Shown: piece by piece, positions 8,887-19,462 of the stretch | Numbering within the stretch: the stretch's first letter is position 1 | Layout of the letters: the number at the start of each line of letters is the position of its first letter | The notes under the pieces: generated by a model | The model's database searches: none | The model's input: only the letters and a program-made list of their open reading frames with translations | What the model was told of the DNA's origin: nothing | Position numbers and translations under genes: made by a program | Origin: Patescibacteria group bacterium | GTDB taxonomy: Bacteria > Patescibacteriota > Gracilibacteria > UBA1369 > PNNO01 | Assembly: GCA_042568575.1 (NCBI GenBank) | Contig: JBHPIO010000002.1 | Span: forward strand, 1 to 64,000 | Length of the DNA stretch: 64,000 nucleotides | Direction: 5' to 3'

Positions 8887-9801
8887 ATGCGCGTTAGAAG
8901 CAAAGAGACAACCGGAGAGATTTTTATGATGATATCGGCCGCGTTGCATGGATTTTTCCCTCTGCTTGCTAATACCGGCGTTAATTATCTTCCGCCTGTG
9001 TTTTTTGCGGGAATGAGTGTTTTGCTTTCATCTGTTTTGTTCTTTATTTTCCTGATTTATACGGGAAATTTTCGCAAAATTTTTAACAAGAAAGCGCTTC
9101 CCTATATTTTAGGAGTTACGGTGCTTGTTGTTATTATTCCTTCGATTCTTATTTTCATTGGGACGAGTATGACGTCAGGTGTGAACACAGCGATTTTGCT
9201 TCAAACCGAGGTTCTGTTTACTTTTATTGTTTTTGGACTCTTTTTTAAGGAAAAAATCACGACGAAAAAACTCCTTGGTGGCCTTGCTATTATTGGTGGT
9301 GCTACAATAATTCTCTATAATGGCTCGTTTTCGCTTAATTGGGGTGATTTTATGATTATCCTTGCGACTTTTTTCTATCCTTTTGGAAATAGATGTGCCA
9401 AAAAAGCCCTGGAAATTGTGCCATCGAGCGTTATTCTGTTTGTTCGTTCGTTGATTGGCGGAACCTTCCTAGTTGTTATTAGTTTATTATTCGAAAAACA
9501 TATTGGATTTGGAGGGGATTCAATGCTAATTCCGGTTCTTTTTGTTCTTGCGAATGGATTCCTCATTATGTTCCTTTCCAAGATTGTTACTTACGAGGCA
9601 TTTAAGCGAATTGACGTTACAAAAGCGATTGCACTTGTTATGTCTGAGCCGGCATTCGCCTTAATCTTCCTGATGATTTTTCTTCAACAGTTCCCGAATT
9701 TATATCAGGTTATCGGACTTATTATTATTATGATTGGAGTCGGCTTTGTTGTTTTCAAAAAGCGCAAGGCAAAGGATCTAGAAGGAATTGCCGTGGATTA
9801 A
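8887..9801 (+). CDS. DMT/EamA family transporter
   Basis: About 10 TM helices in two repeats; FFKEKIT motif. Confidence 0.85.
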   Translation: MRVRSKETTGEIFMMISAALHGFFPLLANTGVNYLPPVFFAGMSVLLSSVLFFIFLIYTGNFRKIFNKKALPYILGVTVLVVIIPSILIFIGTSMTSGVNTAILLQTEVLFTFIVFGLFFKEKITTKKLLGGLAIIGGATIILYNGSFSLNWGDFMIILATFFYPFGNRCAKKALEIVPSSVILFVRSLIGGTFLVVISLLFEKHIGFGGDSMLIPVLFVLANGFLIMFLSKIVTYEAFKRIDVTKAIALVMSEPAFALIFLMIFLQQFPNLYQVIGLIIIMIGVGFVVFKKRKAKDLEGIAVD

Positions 9802-9828
9802 AAAAAGAGAGCCCCAAGCGAGCTCTCT
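9800..9828 (-). terminator. Intrinsic terminator ending the sigma/A2M/lipoprotein unit
   Basis: AGAGAGC/GCTCTCT stem followed by a T-run on the minus strand. Confidence 0.7.
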
Positions 9829-9849
9829 CCTTAATCAAACCTAACTAAT

Positions 9850-10473
9850 TTAGTTAAACGTAAGACTTTCAACTATTTTGTCAGTCATTTCGATTCGTTT
9901 TTTCTGAGAATCCGAAAGCTCCATCTTGAGCAATTCAGTCCCCGGATCTTCATATATTGCGTAATCTTCTTTTGCAAAGAGGTTTACGGCGAACGCAGCT
10001 TCAGGCCACTCTTCGTTTGGTGTCTCTATGAAATATGTATTTTGAAATCCAAGATCACCCATTTTTGTAACTTCGAGATATGAAGTCACACCTTCTTTCA
10101 TTTGCGTGCAGTCTTTAACATATTCAACAAGGTCTGCTTCGTCACAGGCATTTCTTAATGAAAATCCTGGCTCCTGCCTCTCAAGAAGTCGCGCGAAGTA
10201 ATCCGAACGTTCAAGAGTAAATAAAACGGTTGGGATAAGGAAATCTCTTTCTTCGTCATATTCTCCTATGTGGATTCTAAGAAGTTCTTCTTCCTCGTCG
10301 TATACTTTGATGTCGTACTTTGCGGGATAATCGAACCCAAACCCGATTTCATCGTTAGTGTATTGGGTTAGTTCGCCAGTGTCCTGCGGTGCGGTTTCGG
10401 TTGGCTCGGCGCATCCATGAAGTCCAAGGACTGCCATAAATGTTACGATGCCAACTAAGATTATTTTTTTCAT
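9850..10473 (-). CDS. Lipoprotein, PsbP-like pattern
   Basis: Lipobox LHGC; YTNDEIGFGFDYP motif. Confidence 0.7.
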   Translation of the reverse strand: MKKIILVGIVTFMAVLGLHGCAEPTETAPQDTGELTQYTNDEIGFGFDYPAKYDIKVYDEEEELLRIHIGEYDEERDFLIPTVLFTLERSDYFARLLERQEPGFSLRNACDEADLVEYVKDCTQMKEGVTSYLEVTKMGDLGFQNTYFIETPNEEWPEAAFAVNLFAKEDYAIYEDPGTELLKMELSDSQKKRIEMTDKIVESLTFN

Positions 10474-10484
10474 ATTATTGAGAA

Positions 10485-11072
10485 TTATTCAGCTGGAGCT
10501 GATGGGTAGTTTGAAGGGTCTTCGTCAGGATGAACTCCGCCTCCGCCTTCGATCTGAGGTTCGTCGTCTTCTTCTCCAAACATTTGGTTCATACAATTAT
10601 CAAATGATGCTTCTCCTTCTTCGACTTTATCTTCCGGGATTACGTAGTTAGTTAATCCAACTTCGGTGTTGTCCAGGTCGAGAAAGAAAACATTGTCTGC
10701 TTGTGTTTTCGATGACCAAACATTCCAACATGGGCCAGGTGAATTATCTACACCAGTTCTCCATACAATAAGTTGTTTTTCTTCCAGACCTAAAAGGTAC
10801 AACATATCTATGTTTGGGTTTTCAAGCGTAAACAGAACTTCTCCGTCTTTAACAGATGTAATAGTCCCGTCTTGTGTGTTGTATTTATAATCTAGGGTTT
10901 CCACGATTTCTCTTTTCTGAGACACAGAAGTCTCATTTGTTGGCGCCGTTTCTTCCATAGAAGTATCTTCGCCTGGAGTAGTTGCGTCCTGGGTTGGTTC
11001 TGATGAACCACATCCAGAGAGTCCTAGTATTGCGAGAATGCTAATCATTCCTGCGATTGCGAGCTTTTTCAT
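10485..11072 (-). CDS. Acidic lipoprotein
   Basis: Start MKKLAIAG at 11072; lipobox LSGC; signal peptide resembles that of 9850-10473. Confidence 0.7.
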   Translation of the reverse strand: MKKLAIAGMISILAILGLSGCGSSEPTQDATTPGEDTSMEETAPTNETSVSQKREIVETLDYKYNTQDGTITSVKDGEVLFTLENPNIDMLYLLGLEEKQLIVWRTGVDNSPGPCWNVWSSKTQADNVFFLDLDNTEVGLTNYVIPEDKVEEGEASFDNCMNQMFGEEDDEPQIEGGGGVHPDEDPSNYPSAPAE

Positions 11073-11104
11073 TGTTTTGAGGGTTAAAATTATATGCTCT
11101 GTTA

Positions 11105-11136
11105 TCAATAACACTTAAATTCTAGAAAGTTGCGGT
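11105..11136 (-). promoter_or_regulatory. Putative ECF sigma promoter, copy 2
   Basis: ACCGCAACTT-N12-GTGTTATTGA; both boxes and spacer length identical to 17220-17251. Confidence 0.75.
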
Positions 11137-11147
11137 AATCGCGACGG

Positions 11148-14100
11148 TTATCTTTCGATAGTAATTTTATCGCCCGATGTGATGTTTGCAACTTCTGGGA
11201 ATAGGAAGCTTTCGATTTTTGCCGGATCGGCATAGAAAGTTCCCGGGTGAATTACTGTGGCGTAGTAAGTTCTGTACGGCTTACTGTTCTCACCATTAAA
11301 CCAGTAGAAGTATACTTCTTGATTATGAATGTTATACGGGCTTGCGTTTCCATAATAGCTACCAAAGACCTTAGGGGCTGTTAGCAATTTTAGACCGCTA
11401 GGCATAATGTCCGTAATTAAGTAAGAAGTATCTTTGTCACCCTGAAGGGCAAGTGTGATTTTTACAATATCACCTTCCTGGTATGTTGAATCATCACGAC
11501 TTAAGTTTGTGTAAGATCTAGAAATATTTACGCTGCTGTCTGTCTCGAAGTTTTCAGGGGCAATTGGTTCTTCGTAGTAAATAACTGCTCCAAGATCTCC
11601 CTTAACATCGGTTAGACTTATTCCTTTCATCTTGCTTGCAAGGACTTTATGAGTACCACAAGGCTTAAGTGTGATCTGTTCTTCTGAGTTTCCAGGACGA
11701 ACTGTAAAGCTAACTTCGTCAGGGCTTGCGTATTCAATCGCGTTCTTAATATATCCAATTTCATACAGATTGAGAATGTCGTCTTTTATACCGTGTCTTT
11801 CAACATAAATGTATAGTTCAATTGCGTCATCTTTTTCGCCAAGACCTGCAGCAAGGATTGCTCCAAGCGCTGTTTCGTAAGCGTTGTCGTCTGCCAATTC
11901 ATCAGAGACTTTATTGTAGATCTTTCGTGCTTCTCCGTGATCTCCAAGGCTTTCGAATGCAAGTGCGATATATAATTTTTCTGTAAGAGTTAGAGTCTCG
12001 TCGTCCTTAATTATTTGAAGACTGTTAAGAACCGGTTCGTTCATGTTAGCCAGACCAAGCATCGCAAGAATTACTTCTTCAAAATTTGCATCTGGATTGT
12101 TATAGAAAGAGTTGAAGTATTTCTTGAGCTCTCTAGTGTTGTATCTTTCAGGATTTGGATCGACTGTTGTGATTAATGCTGAAAGTCTTAAATCAGATGA
12201 AGAGTATGGAATAAGGCTTAATCCACCATCTACCTGTTGATAGTTTGTGATTTCAAAGTCACGTCTCTGCGCATACTCAACTTCGAAGTGTTCTGCAAGA
12301 ATTTCTCGCGATATCACCTCGGAAAGTCTTTGATCAATACGTTCACCTTCAGTGAAGTAAAGCCATAATAAGTTCTGATAATGCCTTGTTAATCCGGTAT
12401 CCATGAAGTAAATTTCTGCGAATCCTTCTTCTGGAAGGTCGAATACTGTTGTTTCGTCTACAGAAGGGATTAGTTCAAGGACATCGTGCTTTAGACGAGA
12501 ACCTTTAACTTCCATTGGGAGCGAAATTGCGTCTTTCTTAGATCCTGCTTTTGCATCGATTTGGATATCGTGAGTTCCAAGTTTTAGCTCTGGAAGTTCA
12601 TAATATGATCCTGTAAATGCAGTTCCAGTTATTGTGTCTGACTTTTCTACTCCAAGCGATGTTGCTGTAAGGTTGAAGTCAACTTCGTCGTCCTTAGAAA
12701 GCGCGTTTCCGAATGCTCTAAATTTAAGGATTGGATTATCTTTAATTGAGTATTCCTTGTTCATCACAAGGTCAGCGAACATTGGCAGTGTAACTTTAAC
12801 TGATCCAATTCCAACACCTGCTCTTAAATCTTGAGTATCAATGGCTTTTGCCACAACCCTCCAAGAAGTGATGTTGTCTGGAACTTGGAATGTTACGCTT
12901 CCTTTACCGTTTGATCCTGTTGTGATTGTTTCAAATAGGGCTGTGTCTTCGAAGTCGTTTCGTACGCCGTCTCCGCCTTTATCGTTATGAACGTAGAAGT
13001 TGTTGGCAATGTATGTGTGCTGATCTTTAACTTCGAAGTTATATACCCAAGTTGGTTTATTAACTTTTTTGATCGATGTAACTTTCACATTGTTGCCTTC
13101 TTTTGTCGTTAGATAGTCCCCAATTCTAACGTTTCCTGCAACGTCCCACATGTTGTTAACAAACAGCACATGCTCTCTTGTAACTTCGAGACTGTCGTTA
13201 ATTACGAGGTATTCATTAACATAATGCGAAATTGTGCTGGTAACTTCCGATGCAACTAGTTCATTAGAAAATGCGTGTTTTCTGGTTAAAATGTAGTCAC
13301 CTTTCGCAACTTCCTCGATTGATTTGTATGTTCCGTCTGACATTAGAATTTGTGTACCGGCAGTGAAACATCCACCTGCTTCTGCTCCTGTTTCCAGGTT
13401 TGCGGTGTCTAAAGGATTTGTATGAGTTACGTATCTTTGAATGATACCGTCAGTTTCGCGTGAATATAATTGCTCAATCGGATCCTGAATTCTGTTGTAG
13501 ATAAGTTTGTAATATGCCTCATCAACAAGATTCATATTAATTTTTGTAGCAACTGGGTTTCCGTCTTTATCTTTTACAGTAACGTTTAGTGTTACTTTCT
13601 CTCCCGGTTCGTATGAATCCTTATTAGTTTCCAATTCAACATCCAAACCTTTCAACTCTTTATTATAAGAAACCGAAGTGCTGAAAGTTGTACGATACAT
13701 TTTTCCATCAAACCATACTCCCTGAAGATATATGTTTGGAACATCTTCTTTTTCGAATTTGAATGTATAGTATGGAGATTCCTTTACAACGTGTTCATGA
13801 AGTCCGTTTTGAAGCTGCATGAATAGGAATTGTCCTCCAACATCTACGCTTAAAGGTGTGTCGCTTTGTGTGAATGCTGTTTCAACAGATTCTCCAACAT
13901 CGAAATAATGTTCACCATCATCGTTGTTTAGGATTTTCATTGAATAATAATCTCTACCTCGAGAACTTTCAGATCCGTAAATATAAAGGTTGTCTTCAGC
14001 AAGTCCTCCGTCGTCGTCGTACGTTTCAAACTTAACTGTGTAGTATTTAGATGGATCCATTTCGAATTCATAGTGAGCTACTCCATCGTCATCTGTCACA

Positions 14101-16583
14101 ACGTCAAATGTTCCGTATTCGTTGCTTGCCTGCCTGTAATCATAATCTTTTACAACTTTTTTATTGATGAAATCGTAGTGCTCGCCAGTTTCGATTTTAT
14201 TCCACCATTTTTCCGTAATTATTCCCTTAACTTTTCTGTTGCCTGCAATGTCTCCAATGTGATTTCTATAAGAGTATGATCCTTCATTCTCATTAATCTT
14301 GGTAAGGTCGATCCAGTTAGTCTGGATGTCCATGTATGCAGTGTTGTCTTTAACTTCTTTCTTTGCGTCCACGTCTATGTGCGATCTGTATACTGCAATG
14401 CTTACGGATCCGTAAATGTCAGATGATTCTCCTTTGGTTGGATAGAAAGAGAAGTATTTAGTATCGACCTCATAGTTTGCTGCGGCCTTTTGTGTGTAAA
14501 CTGCCTTTCCATTTTCATCTGTTACGAGAGCAGTTCCATCTGAATCTCCGTAATTAAGTTCTACATAAGGTACAGGAGTGCCGTCAAAGAAATGCGTATC
14601 GATATCGATTTTGATTTCTTCTCCCGAGAACATTGCTCTCTTGTTTGGAGTTACTTCAATATCATAAGTTGGCTTTGTATAAGCGCGAACGTTAATTGCT
14701 TTGCTGCCTATAGTTTTTTCTCCGTCGTAAATTGCGATTACATAACTACCCGGAAGCATTTCTTCAAAGTCGTATGATCCTGAGAATGTGCCGTCTGCTT
14801 CTGCTTCGAAACTAAGATCGGAAACAAAGGCATCTGGAGCGAATCCAAGATATCCTCCCCATCCTTTATATAGCTTCATGTTCATGTCTTCTATCTGGCT
14901 GCCGTCTTTAGGGTCAACAAATCCCCAGAAACGCATTTTGTCGTTTGGAAGATACATCGGCCTGTCAGTGTCGAATGCATACCAATAACTTTTCTGTGTC
15001 TCGCGTGACACAACTTGAGTAACAATACTTTTGCCGTCTGCAGCTGTGATTTTAATGGTATTTTGTGAGTGATTTTCTTGAGGGAAGTCGAATCTTGCAA
15101 CACCATTGTTATCTGTCTTTGTGGAAATACTTTCACCTATAACTTCAACAGTTGCGTTTGTAGCAGGTTTTTCTGCTGAAAGATCATGTGTCCATACAAT
15201 TGCGTCTGTGGCTGTTGCAGAAATGAATGCCGAAAGGTCAGTCATTTGAACTAGTGCCTGATCCATATCATCGTCAGTATTTACCTTGAAGAGGTAATAC
15301 CCGTCAGATAATTCTGCCGAAGGCATGTGGATGTATTGTCTCCAATCTTCTTCGCCAATTTCCGCTTCAAAAGTTGCGATTTTCTCTAAGTCAGAAATTT
15401 TATAGTCGTATTGGCTTCTAGTTAAACTTGCCCAGTAAGGGATATTTTCTCTTTCTTCCAACGCTTCGATGTATTTATCTACATCACTGAATTTGTATAC
15501 TTCAACATCAACTGTTGGAGCTTTTGGTTCAGGAATTTCAATTTCTATTGGATTTCCCTCTTCATCAAATTCAAGTTCTGCTTCTGGGATTTCAACAAAT
15601 ACCGGAGTGTCATCAAGATTTGTATAAACAGTCATTGCAAGCGGTTGAGCTGAACTTACTTCGTAGTAATCTTTCGAGAAACTGAAGTATTTTGACGATG
15701 TAGGCGCAGGTCCTTCCGCAGTTTCGAACTGAACTGTGTAGTCTTCGAGTAATGTTTGATCACTTTTTAGAAGTGGAAGTCCGGCTTTTAAAGTAACTGT
15801 ATAGATAGTAGCCGGATCAAGTCCTCCTTGTGGAACAAAACTCACTGTTCTTTGGTGGTGTTCGAATGTTCCCTGAACTTCAGGAGAAATTTCGAAGTAT
15901 TGGAACATGTGTTCAACGTCTAATTGTTCGTGGCTGAATGTGAATTCGATACCTGAGTTTGTTGGTATACCACTGGTTTTGTCAGCCGGAAGGCTTCCGG
16001 TGACTTTAAAAGTATCTTTTACTTGATACGCCCAGCTGTATCCTTTAGGTCCTTCGTCTGTTTCACTTACTATCACAAAGTTATATATGGCGTTTGGTTC
16101 GAGACCGTTTGCTGGCTGCACTTTGTATTTGCCTTCTTCTATCTTGGTGACATTAAGATCCGTATCAGGGGTTACTTTAATATTCGCTTCAACTGCTGCT
16201 GCATCAAGGTCTTCCGACGCTATTAATGTGAATGAAGTGTCTGATTCGATTCCGCTTGAGTCCTGATTATCGGCTGTCATTTCAAAATGTGCGCTTACTG
16301 TTGGAGGTCCCGAGATGAACCCGCTTTGCAGAAGGTTCTGCAGATTTGGTCCAAATACGATTGCTACTATAACGAGCACCGCGACTACGCTTGCCCATGC
16401 AATCTTTTTCGGCATAAAGAGTGAGGCGAAAAAGTTACCTCCAGATTTAGCCTTCTTTGATTTGGCAGGAGCTTTTTCCAGTCCAGTTTTCTGCTGGATA
16501 TATTTCCAGAGATACTCCTTGCTCTTTTTGACCGGAGCTTTATCGACCTTACGGTCTTTAAAGTCGTTGTTTAGTATATTCAT
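11148..16583 (-). CDS. Membrane-anchored alpha-2-macroglobulin family protein: short cytoplasmic N-terminus, TM, Ig-like (Big_5-like) domains, MG domains, Hint insert
   Basis: TDRPMYLP (MG2), YTKPTYDI, NKDSYEPGEKV, RNDFEDTA...VPDNITSWRV, C-terminal ITDIMPSG...Y.ATVIHPGTF; TM at about residues 62-78. Confidence 0.9.
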   Translation of the reverse strand: MNILNNDFKDRKVDKAPVKKSKEYLWKYIQQKTGLEKAPAKSKKAKSGGNFFASLFMPKKIAWASVVAVLVIVAIVFGPNLQNLLQSGFISGPPTVSAHFEMTADNQDSSGIESDTSFTLIASEDLDAAAVEANIKVTPDTDLNVTKIEEGKYKVQPANGLEPNAIYNFVIVSETDEGPKGYSWAYQVKDTFKVTGSLPADKTSGIPTNSGIEFTFSHEQLDVEHMFQYFEISPEVQGTFEHHQRTVSFVPQGGLDPATIYTVTLKAGLPLLKSDQTLLEDYTVQFETAEGPAPTSSKYFSFSKDYYEVSSAQPLAMTVYTNLDDTPVFVEIPEAELEFDEEGNPIEIEIPEPKAPTVDVEVYKFSDVDKYIEALEERENIPYWASLTRSQYDYKISDLEKIATFEAEIGEEDWRQYIHMPSAELSDGYYLFKVNTDDDMDQALVQMTDLSAFISATATDAIVWTHDLSAEKPATNATVEVIGESISTKTDNNGVARFDFPQENHSQNTIKITAADGKSIVTQVVSRETQKSYWYAFDTDRPMYLPNDKMRFWGFVDPKDGSQIEDMNMKLYKGWGGYLGFAPDAFVSDLSFEAEADGTFSGSYDFEEMLPGSYVIAIYDGEKTIGSKAINVRAYTKPTYDIEVTPNKRAMFSGEEIKIDIDTHFFDGTPVPYVELNYGDSDGTALVTDENGKAVYTQKAAANYEVDTKYFSFYPTKGESSDIYGSVSIAVYRSHIDVDAKKEVKDNTAYMDIQTNWIDLTKINENEGSYSYRNHIGDIAGNRKVKGIITEKWWNKIETGEHYDFINKKVVKDYDYRQASNEYGTFDVVTDDDGVAHYEFEMDPSKYYTVKFETYDDDGGLAEDNLYIYGSESSRGRDYYSMKILNNDDGEHYFDVGESVETAFTQSDTPLSVDVGGQFLFMQLQNGLHEHVVKESPYYTFKFEKEDVPNIYLQGVWFDGKMYRTTFSTSVSYNKELKGLDVELETNKDSYEPGEKVTLNVTVKDKDGNPVATKINMNLVDEAYYKLIYNRIQDPIEQLYSRETDGIIQRYVTHTNPLDTANLETGAEAGGCFTAGTQILMSDGTYKSIEEVAKGDYILTRKHAFSNELVASEVTSTISHYVNEYLVINDSLEVTREHVLFVNNMWDVAGNVRIGDYLTTKEGNNVKVTSIKKVNKPTWVYNFEVKDQHTYIANNFYVHNDKGGDGVRNDFEDTALFETITTGSNGKGSVTFQVPDNITSWRVVAKAIDTQDLRAGVGIGSVKVTLPMFADLVMNKEYSIKDNPILKFRAFGNALSKDDEVDFNLTATSLGVEKSDTITGTAFTGSYYELPELKLGTHDIQIDAKAGSKKDAISLPMEVKGSRLKHDVLELIPSVDETTVFDLPEEGFAEIYFMDTGLTRHYQNLLWLYFTEGERIDQRLSEVISREILAEHFEVEYAQRRDFEITNYQQVDGGLSLIPYSSSDLRLSALITTVDPNPERYNTRELKKYFNSFYNNPDANFEEVILAMLGLANMNEPVLNSLQIIKDDETLTLTEKLYIALAFESLGDHGEARKIYNKVSDELADDNAYETALGAILAAGLGEKDDAIELYIYVERHGIKDDILNLYEIGYIKNAIEYASPDEVSFTVRPGNSEEQITLKPCGTHKVLASKMKGISLTDVKGDLGAVIYYEEPIAPENFETDSSVNISRSYTNLSRDDSTYQEGDIVKITLALQGDKDTSYLITDIMPSGLKLLTAPKVFGSYYGNASPYNIHNQEVYFYWFNGENSKPYRTYYATVIHPGTFYADPAKIESFLFPEVANITSGDKITIER
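12984..13370 (-). other. Hint / bacterial intein-like (BIL) domain, 129 aa (residues 1072-1200), inside the A2M
   Basis: CFTAGT start, TREH block B, VYNFEV block F, YVHN end; +1 residue Asp; no homing endonuclease. Confidence 0.9.
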
Positions 16584-16585
16584 GA

Positions 16586-17164
16586 TTATATAGAGTTAGT
16601 TGCTAATAATTGTCTTAAATTGGTGAGCGCTCTATGCATCATTGATTTGACCGCGCTTTCGGATCTTTTAATAACTTCGCCAATTTCTTTATGTGAAAAG
16701 CCTTCGAAATAATGAAGACTAACTATGTTTTGATATTTTGGATTTAAAGTTCCCACTGCGTCGCTTAGCTTAGAAAGGTCTTCGTCTCCGAACATTGATT
16801 TATCAAGTGCTTCCATTTCTTCCTTTGCGTTTGTCTGAAGTTGTTTCAGTCCCTGCATTTCTTCTGTAAGCGGTGCTATTTTCGGATTTCTACGATGATT
16901 TTTTAATGCGTTGATGGCAATCCGATAGAGCCATACTTTTATCGAAACGCCGGTCCACTTAAATTTGTGAAGGCTTTCGAATGCTTTAATAAATGTTTCG
17001 GCAGTGAGGTCGTATGCGACTTCACTGGACATGGTCCTTTTCACCAAATACTTGAATATCATTTCGTAGTAATGATTGTATACCTTTTCAAATACAGCTT
17101 TGTCTGATTTGAAATCTTCAAGTATCTGCTGCTGGACCTCTGGTGAAAGGTCACTGTGTTTCAT
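16586..17164 (-). CDS. ECF (sigma-70 group 4) RNA polymerase sigma factor
   Basis: AYDLTAETFIKAF, WLYRIAIN (region 2); SHKEIGEVI..SESAVKSMMHRA (region 4). Confidence 0.92.
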   Translation of the reverse strand: MKHSDLSPEVQQQILEDFKSDKAVFEKVYNHYYEMIFKYLVKRTMSSEVAYDLTAETFIKAFESLHKFKWTGVSIKVWLYRIAINALKNHRRNPKIAPLTEEMQGLKQLQTNAKEEMEALDKSMFGDEDLSKLSDAVGTLNPKYQNIVSLHYFEGFSHKEIGEVIKRSESAVKSMMHRALTNLRQLLATNSI

Positions 17165-17219
17165 AGATATGAGGGATTATTATAATCAAGTGTAAGTTTG
17201 CACTATATGTGCTTCACTT

Positions 17220-17251
17220 TCAATAACACATGGATAAAAATAAGTTGCGGT
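17220..17251 (-). promoter_or_regulatory. Putative autoregulatory ECF sigma promoter, copy 1
   Basis: ACCGCAACTT-N12-GTGTTATTGA, 55 nt upstream of the sigma start. Confidence 0.75.
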
Positions 17252-17290: not shown

Positions 17291-17323
17291 AAAAAGCCCG
17301 ACCATGAAATCAGAGGGTCGGGC
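17291..17323 (-). terminator. Intrinsic terminator of the MYXO-CTERM gene
   Basis: GCCCGACC/GGTCGGGC stem plus TTTTT. Confidence 0.75.
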
Positions 17324-17377: not shown

Positions 17378-19462
17378 CTACTGCGACTTGCGTCGCCGCA
17401 GGAGCAGAAGGCCAATGCAACCGATGATGAGGAACAGTGGACCGGTGGGTCCGCTGTCCTGGTTGGAAGAGCAGCCGCAGCCGCTCTTAGGTTCTTTGGT
17501 GCAGTTCGTGGTGTCGAACTGGCACTGGTTGGAGCAAGTGAGAGTGCCATCATCGAAGTCGTGATCAGCGCAGGTGTTGTTATTGAGCGCTGCGCCATCG
17601 CATTGCTCGCCGTCGTCGACAATTCCGTTGCCACAGACGTTGGACTCGGTTTCGCATGAACTGCTGCAGCCGTCACTGTCGGCGAGGTTGCCGTCGTCGC
17701 ACTCTTCTCCGTCGTCGATGGTTCCGTTTCCGCAGTTCAGCGTGCAGCCGGAAGTGTCGAAGCCGCACGATTGGTCGCAGGCGAGGTCGCCGTCGTCGTA
17801 GCCTTGATTCTGGCACGTTGCGTTGCCGAAAGCTTGCATGTCACACTCTTCGTTCGGACCGTTGATGATGCCATCACCGCAGCGGTAGCACTGCGATGCG
17901 TCGAGTTGGCAGGATGCGTCGCAGGCGAGGGTACCACCGTCGAAATTGAGAGATTCGCAGGTGTTGGTTCCCAGATCGCTGGCGTCGCACATCTCGCTGG
18001 CCTGGTTGAGAATGCCGTCACCGCAGGAAGCGTCGAAGCATCCAGAGGTGTCGACGGTGCAATCGGAGTTGCAGGTGAGGTCGCCGAAGGCGTGGCCGAA
18101 ATCGCTGCAGGTTTGGGTGCCGAAGTCGAGATTGTCGCACTCATCCGTGCCGTTCATGATGTCGTCACCGCAGATGAAGTAGTGACACCCGGAGGTGTCA
18201 ATCGTGCAGCTGCCGGTGCAGGTGAGCGTCCCGTAATCGAAGTTCAGTGATTCGCAGGTCGCGCTCCCGAAGGCTGGGCCATCGCATAGCTCGGTGCCGT
18301 CGATGGTGTTGTTGCCGCACATGTGGCAGCCAGCGGTGTCGAACGCGCAGAAGGCGTCGCAGGCGAGGGGTCCACCCACGAAACTGTGGTTGGTGCAGTC
18401 CTGGTTGTTCAGGTCGCTGCCGTCACACAGCTCTGTGCCGTTCTTGATGCCGTCGCCGCAGATGGGCTGGGGCGACATGTACTTGATCGTCCATACCTCC
18501 TCCGTGGTCACGGCCTGGCTGTCCTTGGTGAATGCGTTGTTGCCGTCATACCGCCAAAGGCCGATGTCCGGGGCTCCTCCTCCGATGGCCATTACGATAT
18601 TGTTCTGGCTGATCGCGATTCCTCGGGAATCTGTGAGCATTCTTGTCATGAACGAACCGGGGTTGCTAATCGGAATGAAGTAGACCTCGTCCCCGTTTCC
18701 TGCGGATGAGGCCACGACGTAGCTGGAATTGATATCCATGTCATCTATGGGTAGCGGCAGGAACTGCCACACACTGATGTTCGTGCTGTTGGGCGGGTTT
18801 CCACTCGAATAGGCGTGAGTGCCCGAGTAGTAGAACGTTCCGTTGTCGTCGTACAGCATTGCGTAGGGCTGTTCCGTCACCGTGAGCCCGATGTTCGGGT
18901 AGTGGACCACGGCCTCGGTAGCGATGTTGATTGATGCGACACCGCCGTCGAGCTTGTTGAGCACCCAGATGTGAGTAGCTGTCCTGGTGATTCCCAAGAA
19001 GCCGGTTCGTCCCATGTCGATTGCGACGTAGTCGGTGCAGTCCAGCGCGACTTTGGATACGAAGGTTGCGGCTTGATGAGTGCTGTAGGCGTAGGTTTCC
19101 GCTACGAGCCCCCGGTCGCCGACCTGACCAGCGTTATAGTCGCAACTGGTCGCGTCTGCGGTAAGGTCGTATATCAGCAGATGGGTGCTGTTCTGGCGGG
19201 TAGTGATGAGATGTCCCTCCGCTCCGGAGGTGATCCCGGGCCCGCTTCCCAGCACTGGGCCGATGTCTGCGTAGGGCAGTCCGTCTTCGTCGAGCAGCAG
19301 CACGGACGTGGGAGTGGTGGCAATGAAGCAGCCGTTGTCGGCAGCTTGTTGGGTTGTGGCCATGGCTTTCGGGGCATAGAGCCCCAGAGCCAGAACCGCG
19401 AGGGTGATTGCGATTGCACGTTTCTGCATGCGTTTCTCCTTGTCTCCTCTGTCAATGAACAT
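17378..19462 (-). CDS. High-GC secreted protein: beta-rich N-domain, myxobacterial Cys-rich repeats, MYXO-CTERM sorting signal
   Basis: Signal peptide from ATG 19429 (SD AAGGAG); CGDGI...E.CD repeats; C-terminal SGCGCS-linker-TM-RRRK. Confidence 0.85.
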   Translation of the reverse strand: MFIDRGDKEKRMQKRAIAITLAVLALGLYAPKAMATTQQAADNGCFIATTPTSVLLLDEDGLPYADIGPVLGSGPGITSGAEGHLITTRQNSTHLLIYDLTADATSCDYNAGQVGDRGLVAETYAYSTHQAATFVSKVALDCTDYVAIDMGRTGFLGITRTATHIWVLNKLDGGVASINIATEAVVHYPNIGLTVTEQPYAMLYDDNGTFYYSGTHAYSSGNPPNSTNISVWQFLPLPIDDMDINSSYVVASSAGNGDEVYFIPISNPGSFMTRMLTDSRGIAISQNNIVMAIGGGAPDIGLWRYDGNNAFTKDSQAVTTEEVWTIKYMSPQPICGDGIKNGTELCDGSDLNNQDCTNHSFVGGPLACDAFCAFDTAGCHMCGNNTIDGTELCDGPAFGSATCESLNFDYGTLTCTGSCTIDTSGCHYFICGDDIMNGTDECDNLDFGTQTCSDFGHAFGDLTCNSDCTVDTSGCFDASCGDGILNQASEMCDASDLGTNTCESLNFDGGTLACDASCQLDASQCYRCGDGIINGPNEECDMQAFGNATCQNQGYDDGDLACDQSCGFDTSGCTLNCGNGTIDDGEECDDGNLADSDGCSSSCETESNVCGNGIVDDGEQCDGAALNNNTCADHDFDDGTLTCSNQCQFDTTNCTKEPKSGCGCSSNQDSGPTGPLFLIIGCIGLLLLRRRKSQ
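17500..18462 (-). repeat. About seven tandem Cys-rich protein repeats (mostly about 48 aa)
   Basis: CG(D/N)G...E.CD...C......G.L.C...C..DTSGC units. Confidence 0.8.

Follow-up and report, generated by a model that had tools for sequence, protein, structure and literature searches.

One of the main ways in which bacteria signal across the membrane is through pairs of extracytoplasmic function (ECF) sigma factors and anti-sigma factors, and the ectodomain of the anti-sigma factor determines what such a pair senses. In the RseA/RsiW type, the anti-sigma factor is a single-pass protein released by regulated intramembrane proteolysis; its gene lies directly after the ECF sigma gene and is coupled to it, and its product has a small cytoplasmic part at the N-terminus, a single transmembrane (TM) helix and, beyond the membrane, a large sensor. 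An extracytoplasmic self-cleaving element is present in RsgI of Clostridium thermocellum and in regulators of the FecR/FoxR type, and FecR-type regulators reportedly self-cleave. Here we describe a locus on the minus strand at positions 9850-17251 of a 64,000-nucleotide stretch of DNA (contig JBHPIO010000002.1, hereafter the window) from a Patescibacteria group bacterium, in which an ECF sigma gene stands directly before the gene of an 1811-amino-acid (aa) protein related to alpha-2-macroglobulin (A2M). This protein has a cytoplasmic tail, one TM helix and, in its bait region, a Hint/bacterial intein-like (BIL) domain. We think it fairly likely, from sequence and structure models, that the two form an ECF sigma/anti-sigma module with a membrane-anchored, thioester-less A2M-like anti-sigma factor. 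This would probably be a new type of anti-sigma sensor, with a mechanism that we infer.

The first gene of the operon (16586-17164) encodes a 192-aa protein consisting of sigma regions 2 and 4 only (Pfam Sigma70_r2, residues 29-93, and r4_2, residues 132-182). It scores 88.1 bits against the NCBIfam sigma70-ECF model TIGR02937 (cut-off 42.9), has orthologs upstream of A2M orthologs and, by these matches, belongs to the ECF (group 4) sigma-70 factors. Its TAA stop is followed after 2 nucleotides (nt) by the ATG of the A2M-like open reading frame (ORF; 11148-16583). Residues 1-60 of the A2M-like protein (16404-16583), the candidate sigma-binding segment, hold 16 Lys/Arg residues versus 5 Asp/Glu, and residues ~61-79 (16347-16403) are the only stretch in the whole protein with a 19-residue Kyte-Doolittle mean of at least 1.6. 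The predicted topology is N-in and single-pass, with a full A2M ectodomain outside. No lipobox or lipoprotein signal peptide was found in the protein, which has the 60-residue tail and then the TM helix instead. The preliminary description of the locus had pointed to the 2-nt spacing, the roughly 60 basic cytoplasmic residues with one TM helix, the full A2M body and two lipoproteins followed by a terminator, and all of these features held up, the terminator by eye only. In gene order, coupling and membrane layout the pair resembles the RseA/RsiW type. It is further like that type in a predicted autoregulated promoter and in that the site-2 protease family is represented in the genome (Peptidase_M50, two matching loci), and unlike it in that the tail matches no known anti-sigma family and the sensor is a 1700-residue A2M body, a sensor for which literature searches turned up no published description.

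The preliminary description had also suggested a survey of sigma-A2M adjacency, and this survey revealed a recurrent linkage. Among 61 genomes, namely 60 related genomes and the source genome (a 1.2-Mb assembly of 31 contigs whose closest public relatives carry the labels Patescibacteria and Candidatus Peregrinibacteria), 42 contained an A2M match. An ECF sigma gene lay directly upstream on the same strand for 21 of the 25 orthologs with a visible N-terminus. Four orthologs (L025, L028, L030 and L031) had unrelated upstream genes in place of a sigma gene, and in these a hydrophobic segment begins within ~10 residues of the N-terminus. In one of the 21 sigma-linked orthologs (L024, 6794-7371, minus strand) two overlapping frames, one of 115 and one of 97 aa, make up the sigma gene, reflecting either a frameshift or an assembly error. 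A wider scan using one genome per species returned at least 557 relatives, 80 of which were kept; these came from many Patescibacteria lineages, Bacillota, Chloroflexota and Actinomycetota, together with some records labelled Pseudomonadota that we suspect to be mislabelled bins. Removal of duplicates left 97 loci, including 85 usable ones with a complete N-terminus and at least 650 nt of upstream sequence. An ECF sigma gene was found directly upstream of the A2M gene in 40 of these 85 loci, which span four phyla, and such recurrence argues against a chance arrangement. The distance from sigma stop to A2M start ranged from -62 to +46 nt, with a single gap of 164. At the level of sequence, these data show that the adjacency is conserved and that the two genes are tightly, and translationally, coupled.

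The cytoplasmic tail was co-inherited with the sigma gene. With any overlap with the sigma gene subtracted, and with the start codons of some ORFs uncertain, tails of at least 40 aa were present in 39 sigma-linked loci (the one exception, L017, has a tail of 36 aa) versus 7 unlinked loci. The remaining 38 of the 45 unlinked orthologs had shorter tails, reduced to a plain signal-anchor. Because kin are not independent, we quote a pair test on a FastTree tree built from the 85 A2M bodies after removing the tail and Hint columns. On this tree, sigma linkage changed at least 13 times and the tail at least 17 times. In nine independent sigma-discordant pairs on supported branches, the tail differed in the same direction in a mean of 7.2 pairs, in the opposite direction in 0.0 and not at all in 1.8 (median p 0.016). 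Among Bacillota, four of 18 loci were sigma-linked and none of the 18 carried the Hint domain. Conservation of the pair is shown across many Patescibacteria and in some Bacillota. The A2M orthologs L052, L064 and L090 have another type of cytoplasmic N-terminal module, marked by a repeated 'GW..(D/E)(V/I)' motif, with no adjacent sigma gene where the flank allowed checking.

The linkage might also arise if the A2M were merely the first target gene of the sigma factor, that is, a protease trap at the cell surface that shares a transcript with its regulator, the tail serving as a membrane anchor and the sigma factor being controlled otherwise. We consider this unlikely. An anchoring role leaves unexplained why a long tail accompanies nearly every linked ortholog while a plain signal-anchor suffices for most unlinked ones, and it does not account for the joint change of tail and sigma in independent contrasts. 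Moreover, the operon contains no candidate alternative anti-sigma gene: the gap between sigma and A2M genes is too short to hold one, and the downstream lipoproteins lack a cytoplasmic part. What speaks for the target-gene explanation is that 45 of the 85 orthologs work without an adjacent sigma factor, that binding between sigma and tail is something we infer, and that the tail itself is short, poorly structured in the window's clade and unmatched by any anti-sigma family.

Sequence conservation within the tail bears on the same question. In the window's clade (12 sequences), D14, K20, S21, K22, Y24 and W26 are conserved, the core KSKxYLWxYI falling at about residues 20-29, and are followed by a variable Lys-rich linker and the TM helix. 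Thirty sigma-linked tails of other clades, Bacillota included, align into two helices, with the patterns L..L..L...L and F+..L+..L around a Pro-containing turn, and lead through a basic linker into the TM helix. These 30 tails, with the window's clade excluded, were made into a profile, which was searched against the 2976 ORFs of at least 60 aa in the source genome. Its top three matches were the product of the gene immediately following another ECF sigma gene, on contig 2 (E 8e-4), the window A2M (E 8e-4, the alignment spanning helix, linker and TM) and the product of the gene immediately following a third ECF sigma gene, on contig 23 (E 0.21). Although the scores are weak, these matches suggest a shared, uncurated anti-sigma N-terminal module with interchangeable sensor domains; that the profile picks out the partners of other ECF sigma factors is left unexplained if the A2M is only a target gene. 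In both additional pairs (contig 2, L004: 1480-2058 and 2051-3337; contig 23, L003: 1468-2049 and 2104-3330) the sigma gene is followed by that of a single-pass protein of ~410-430 aa. A fourth sigma gene (L005) is followed by that of a multi-pass protein, which has no tail-profile match. In a language-model search (Atlas), the neighbours were DUF4179, RsgI_M, DUF3600 and DUF5667 clusters at 0.77-0.83, below the level at which we would treat them as more than a lead. A word-index search with the window tail returned 15 proteins, all A2M plus PT-HINT and without informative names, and one with a Bacillota tail returned two proteins without names.

Several observations weigh against reading the A2M-like protein as an anti-sigma factor. 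The window tail matched no known anti-sigma family (e.g., zf-HC2 or RskA) in Pfam or NCBIfam, and a Pfam search at E up to 5 with this tail and nine other sigma-linked tails gave chance-level matches only. In the window's clade the tail has one short conserved helix, and its profile match is weak and lies partly in the linker and TM helix. The seven long tails found without a sigma gene are of low complexity or of a different type. The Hint domain is distributed without regard to sigma linkage: among the 85 loci, which were partly retrieved through the Hint pattern so that Hint frequencies are biased, 31 had both, 17 had Hint only, 9 had sigma only and 28 had neither (tree-contrast sign test, p ~1). 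Finally, protease trapping, self-cleavage and intramembrane proteolysis are proposed steps. The preliminary description had cast the A2M as anti-sigma factor and sensor. Adjacency, the co-occurrence of tail and sigma, their joint gain and loss and the tail profile all favour that assignment, which is left short of a match to a known anti-sigma family.

The same linkage evidence would fit a tail acting as a positive regulator needed for sigma activity, since it shows functional coupling and not the sign of that coupling. The N-terminus of FecR is needed for sigma activity in this way. No result here argues directly against such a role. Most ECF partners of such a layout are inhibitors, however, and we hold a positive role of the tail to be highly improbable.

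The sigma factor appears to be active and to control its own operon. An ECF-type promoter at 17221-17248 (GCAAC-N16-GTTATTG; extended form AACCGCAACTT...TGTGTTATTG) ends 56 nt before the sigma ATG. The pattern AACCGCAACTT-N13-(T)GTGTTATTG was present upstream of the sigma gene in all ten orthologous loci inspected, where the core spacing is GCAAC-N16/17-GTTATTG, giving the sigma gene a predicted AAC-containing -35 element and a conserved -10 element. The form conserved before sigma, lipoprotein and other surface-protein genes is AACCGCAACTT-N13-TGTGTTATTG. In the source genome, the core pattern matched eight times versus once for a reversed control. Seven of the eight matches have the extended consensus in common and lie with their ends 29-56 nt ahead of a correctly stranded start codon, their targets being the sigma gene, lipoprotein 1 of the operon, lipoprotein genes on contigs 1, 2 and 23, a short ORF on contig 23, and a 489-aa protein with SLH domains (Pfam 1.9e-20) on contig 31. 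The copy before the lipoprotein genes of the operon (11106-11133) is an exact pattern match 33 nt upstream of the MKKLAIAG... start. Across five related genomes there were 21 matches versus 4 for the control. Sixteen of the 21 sites have a stricter form, of which five precede sigma genes, four precede SLH-like genes (by eye), six precede ORFs with a signal peptide or lipoprotein signal and one is unclear. A promoter that is conserved and enriched in the genome in this way points to a small regulon of surface proteins, and the operon looks autoregulated. The motif is confined to the near clade plus L023 and L038 in a scan of the sigma-linked loci; in 28 distant sigma-linked loci it was not found, a relaxed pattern giving loose matches only in L019, L059, L061 and L071. 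Thus, one common promoter for all A2M-linked sigma factors is not defined.

The ectodomain has the composition of an A2M. Pfam identified Big_5, bMG3, MG2, A2M_BRD (residues 896-1027), A2M (1214-1272) and bMG10 (1687-1797). The bait-region domain (13503-13898; PF07703, E 7.7e-09) is a confident beta domain in a structure model. Searched with a profile of 20 orthologs, the PDB gave matches to Escherichia coli YfhM, insect TEP1 and human A2M, at 7e-20 to 5e-15. The C-terminal half, residues 1205-1811 (11151-12971; 607 residues), comprising MG7, CUB, helical (TED-like) and MG8/MG10 parts, was modelled with AlphaFold2 at pLDDT 88 and pTM 0.77, and the model predicts beta domains, a bundle of ~12 helices and a terminal beta domain. 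Foldseek matched it at E 1e-25 to 1e-27 to native C3, Salmonella A2M and ECAM, in a set that included A2ML1 and TEP1 (E 1e-22 to 1e-27, TMq 0.55-0.61). Because this model matches native A2M, C3 and TEP structures, describing the protein as a full A2M body is justified, and it has the MG array, bait-region domain, CUB/TED core and C-terminal MG domain of the superfamily.

The protein is not a canonical thioester A2M, as it lacks the CxEQ motif; it contains only two Cys residues, one of which is Cys1 of the Hint domain. Among 105 related long ORFs, three had CxEQ. Two orthologs carry the motif, L029 (residue 1300, CVEQ, also with a Hint insert) and L090 (residue 1432, CTEQ). A second, longer A2M paralog family, present in the same taxonomic order, is represented by L035 (G029:C28) and by matches of 2100-2230 aa in G004, G010, G013, G019, G021, G031 and G055; L035 has a CTEQ motif, and no sigma gene was detected beside it in the part of the locus covered. 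In 48 of the 85 orthologs the stretch 10-30 residues outside the TM helix, right ahead of the first beta strand, contains an A-x-A motif, often as AYAQD; the window protein has VSAHF there. We considered this motif, ~20 residues beyond the membrane, as a possible cleavage site for signal peptidase or a site-1 protease and dropped it as uninformative, as it was present in 28 of 40 sigma-linked versus 20 of 45 unlinked orthologs.

Described bacterial A2Ms of type I (ECAM/YfhM and Salmonella A2M) and type II (MagD) share with the window protein the MG array, the bait-region domain, the CUB/TED-like core and the C-terminal MG domain. Like type II, as these types are defined in PMC5764988, the window protein is without a thioester, and unlike type I it has no CxEQ in the TED and no lipoprotein signal peptide. 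It differs from both in having a cytoplasmic tail and TM helix instead of a lipoprotein anchor, and a Hint domain in the bait region. The window family is found in Patescibacteria, Bacillota and Chloroflexota rather than in Gram-negative bacteria. ECAM pairs with a pbpC partner. The neighbours of the window gene are the sigma gene and two lipoprotein genes, and not pbpC or the six-gene mag operon, no homology search for MagA, B, C, E or F having been made.

The Hint/BIL domain, which the preliminary description did not mention, occupies residues 1072-1200 (12984-13370; Pfam PT-HINT 2.6e-11, with further matches to Hint, Intein_splicing and Vint). Relative to Hint-less orthologs it is a precise 129-aa insertion in a Gly-rich loop, the junction ...GG|C...HN|DKGG... 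corresponding to ...GGKGG-GGDG... in those orthologs. The insertion falls in the gap that separates the Pfam bait-region model from the A2M model that follows it. Its assignment to the bait loop is drawn from these model boundaries and the disordered flanks, not from a residue-level superposition. A model of residues 885-1325 (pLDDT 78) predicted a confident Hint fold between disordered linkers at 1048-1069 and 1202-1213. The best PDB matches were Tetrahymena BIL2 (6y75, E 1e-10, TMt 0.81) and the bacterial intein-like domain 2lwy of C. thermocellum (33% identity, TMt 0.83), in agreement with a sequence profile search. G1070, G1071, C1072, T1135, H1138, H1199 and N1200 are invariant in 20 orthologs whose mean column identity is 39%. 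Across 61 distinct inserts of 128-130 aa, Cys1, the terminal His-Asn and a Gly before Cys1 were present in every copy, and Gly-Gly before Cys1 in 57. The domain is therefore, as far as conserved residues and fold can tell, catalytically intact, and it sits between two disordered Gly-rich linkers.

The residue after the terminal Asn identifies the type of domain. It is Asp in the window and, over the 61 copies, D in 28, E in 21, Q in 5, A in 4, N in 2 and S in 1, so a single copy has a nucleophile at this position. Splicing by an intein hands the thioester to the first C-extein residue (PMC8616854). Because splicing needs this transfer, an Asp where Cys, Ser or Thr is wanted rejects a canonical intein of classes 1-3. 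The features instead agree with an A-type BIL domain as defined in PMC7765530, with a Hint fold, Cys1, block-B TxxH, His-Asn, a non-nucleophilic +1 residue and a location in a variable region of a secreted protein. The likeness extends to Tetrahymena BIL2 of the BUBL locus, which also has Gly-Gly before Cys1. Unlike described A-type BILs, the window domain, here known from sequence and a model, has an A2M as host and the bait loop of that A2M as its site.

The Hint domain most likely self-processes the bait loop at Gly1071|Cys1072, at Asn1200|Asp1201 or at both. The chemistry may result in splicing, in cleavage or, by analogy with BIL2, in the Gly-Gly C-terminus being passed on to a nucleophile. 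For BIL2, conjugation of a ubiquitin-like domain with lysines is described (PMC8616854); nothing here shows conjugation. It is rather unlikely, in our estimate, that the domain is functionally silent, splicing out as some A-type BILs can without a +1 nucleophile, so that the Gly-rich bait loop is restored and the mature protein equals Hint-less orthologs. The shared Gly-rich junction of Hint-less orthologs, at least six changes of Hint state on the tree and the BIL identity of the closest solved relatives, 2lwy among them, are in keeping with such silence. Against it, PMC7765530 states that A-type BILs cleave but cannot ligate their flanks. There is also no homing endonuclease, and the domain is found at one site in a variable loop with its catalytic residues kept in 61 of 61 copies across many candidate phyla. 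This retention at a single site fits a kept function better than a parasite, although retention alone cannot separate splicing from cleavage. As the Hint domain is independent of sigma linkage on the tree, it cannot be the general release mechanism and is a property of the A2M lineage, combined here with the tail.

These results bear on how an A2M-like anti-sigma factor could work. The 60-residue basic tail, with its conserved KSKxYLWxYI helix, would hold the sigma factor at the membrane, and an extracellular event at the A2M ectodomain would turn the membrane stub into a substrate for intramembrane proteolysis. The likeliest such event would be proteolysis of exposed linkers together with the large shift in conformation that characterises A2Ms. 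Because A2Ms trap proteases and alter their shape when the bait is cut, and because bacterial A2Ms of type II do their trapping without a thioester (PMC5764988), a protease signal is the most economical guess. The freed sigma factor would then raise expression of its own operon, making more trap, and of envelope and surface proteins. The preliminary description had proposed that cleavage in the bait region releases the sigma factor; given the Hint/BIL domain found in that region, this trigger needs revising. Self-processing by the Hint domain could leave the ectodomain in two chains and primed for cleavage, on the model of autoproteolytic anti-sigma factors, as a trait of the A2M lineage and not of the sigma link. 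A cleavage-primed sensor has a precedent in RsgI, in which autoproteolysis is required before intramembrane proteolysis (PMC10328401). Like the RsgI and FecR types, the window protein thus has a predicted extracytoplasmic self-cleaving element. Unlike in those types, the element lies ~1000 residues from the membrane in the A2M bait loop, rather than at a juxtamembrane Asn-Pro or Gly-Thr site, and is evolutionarily independent of the sigma link.

A more speculative possibility, which we judge improbable, is that the Hint domain supplies the thioester otherwise wanting in this A2M lineage. An N-to-S acyl shift at Gly-Gly|Cys1072 would put a thioester into the backbone midway along the bait loop, and an attacking protease or amine would be joined covalently to the membrane-anchored N-fragment, as BIL2 joins Gly-Gly to lysines. 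The C-fragment would be shed, licensing intramembrane proteolysis and release of the sigma factor. If so, covalent protease trap and transmembrane protease sensor would be combined in one protein.

The operon continues with two lipoprotein genes. Lipoprotein 1 (ORF 10485-11114, likely ATG at 11072) has a signal peptide ending in LSGC and lipoprotein 2 (9850-10473) one ending in LHGC, both translations being of the lipoprotein type with its Cys. No Pfam family was found for either. Homologs of lipoprotein 2 lie downstream of the A2M gene in L007, L012, L014, L015 and L032. The two window lipoproteins (P0003 and P0004, 9850-11072) are 27% identical, and by sequence comparison the regulon lipoproteins are paralogous, lipoprotein 2 with another regulon lipoprotein included. 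An 'FGF.YP'-like segment also occurs in the contig 1 regulon protein (L116: 1558-2235), which has no Pfam family. A terminator-like hairpin and T-run at ~9800-9829 closes the operon; it was seen by eye and is absent from the list of a consensus terminator scanner. On the other side of the operon, a 694-aa ORF (17378-19462, minus strand) has a Cys-rich DUF4215 repeat (Pfam 7.8e-11) and lies in DNA with a GC content of ~0.54, versus 0.35-0.41 in most of the window. Between this ORF and the sigma operon, a further hairpin and T-run was seen by eye at ~17291-17322 on the minus strand.

With its predicted promoter and small regulon, the system lends itself readily to reporter tests in a heterologous host. 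For both protein families, a thioester-less A2M whose bait loop has a fixed and catalytically intact Hint/BIL domain represents a new architecture, and it offers a concrete, testable case for the natural role of BIL domains. As an anti-sigma ectodomain, the A2M would be a ready-made sensor of extracellular proteases, with more trap and new surface proteins as its output. The module occurs in some Bacillota and in Patescibacteria, organisms whose regulators are very few and which rely on contact with other cells.

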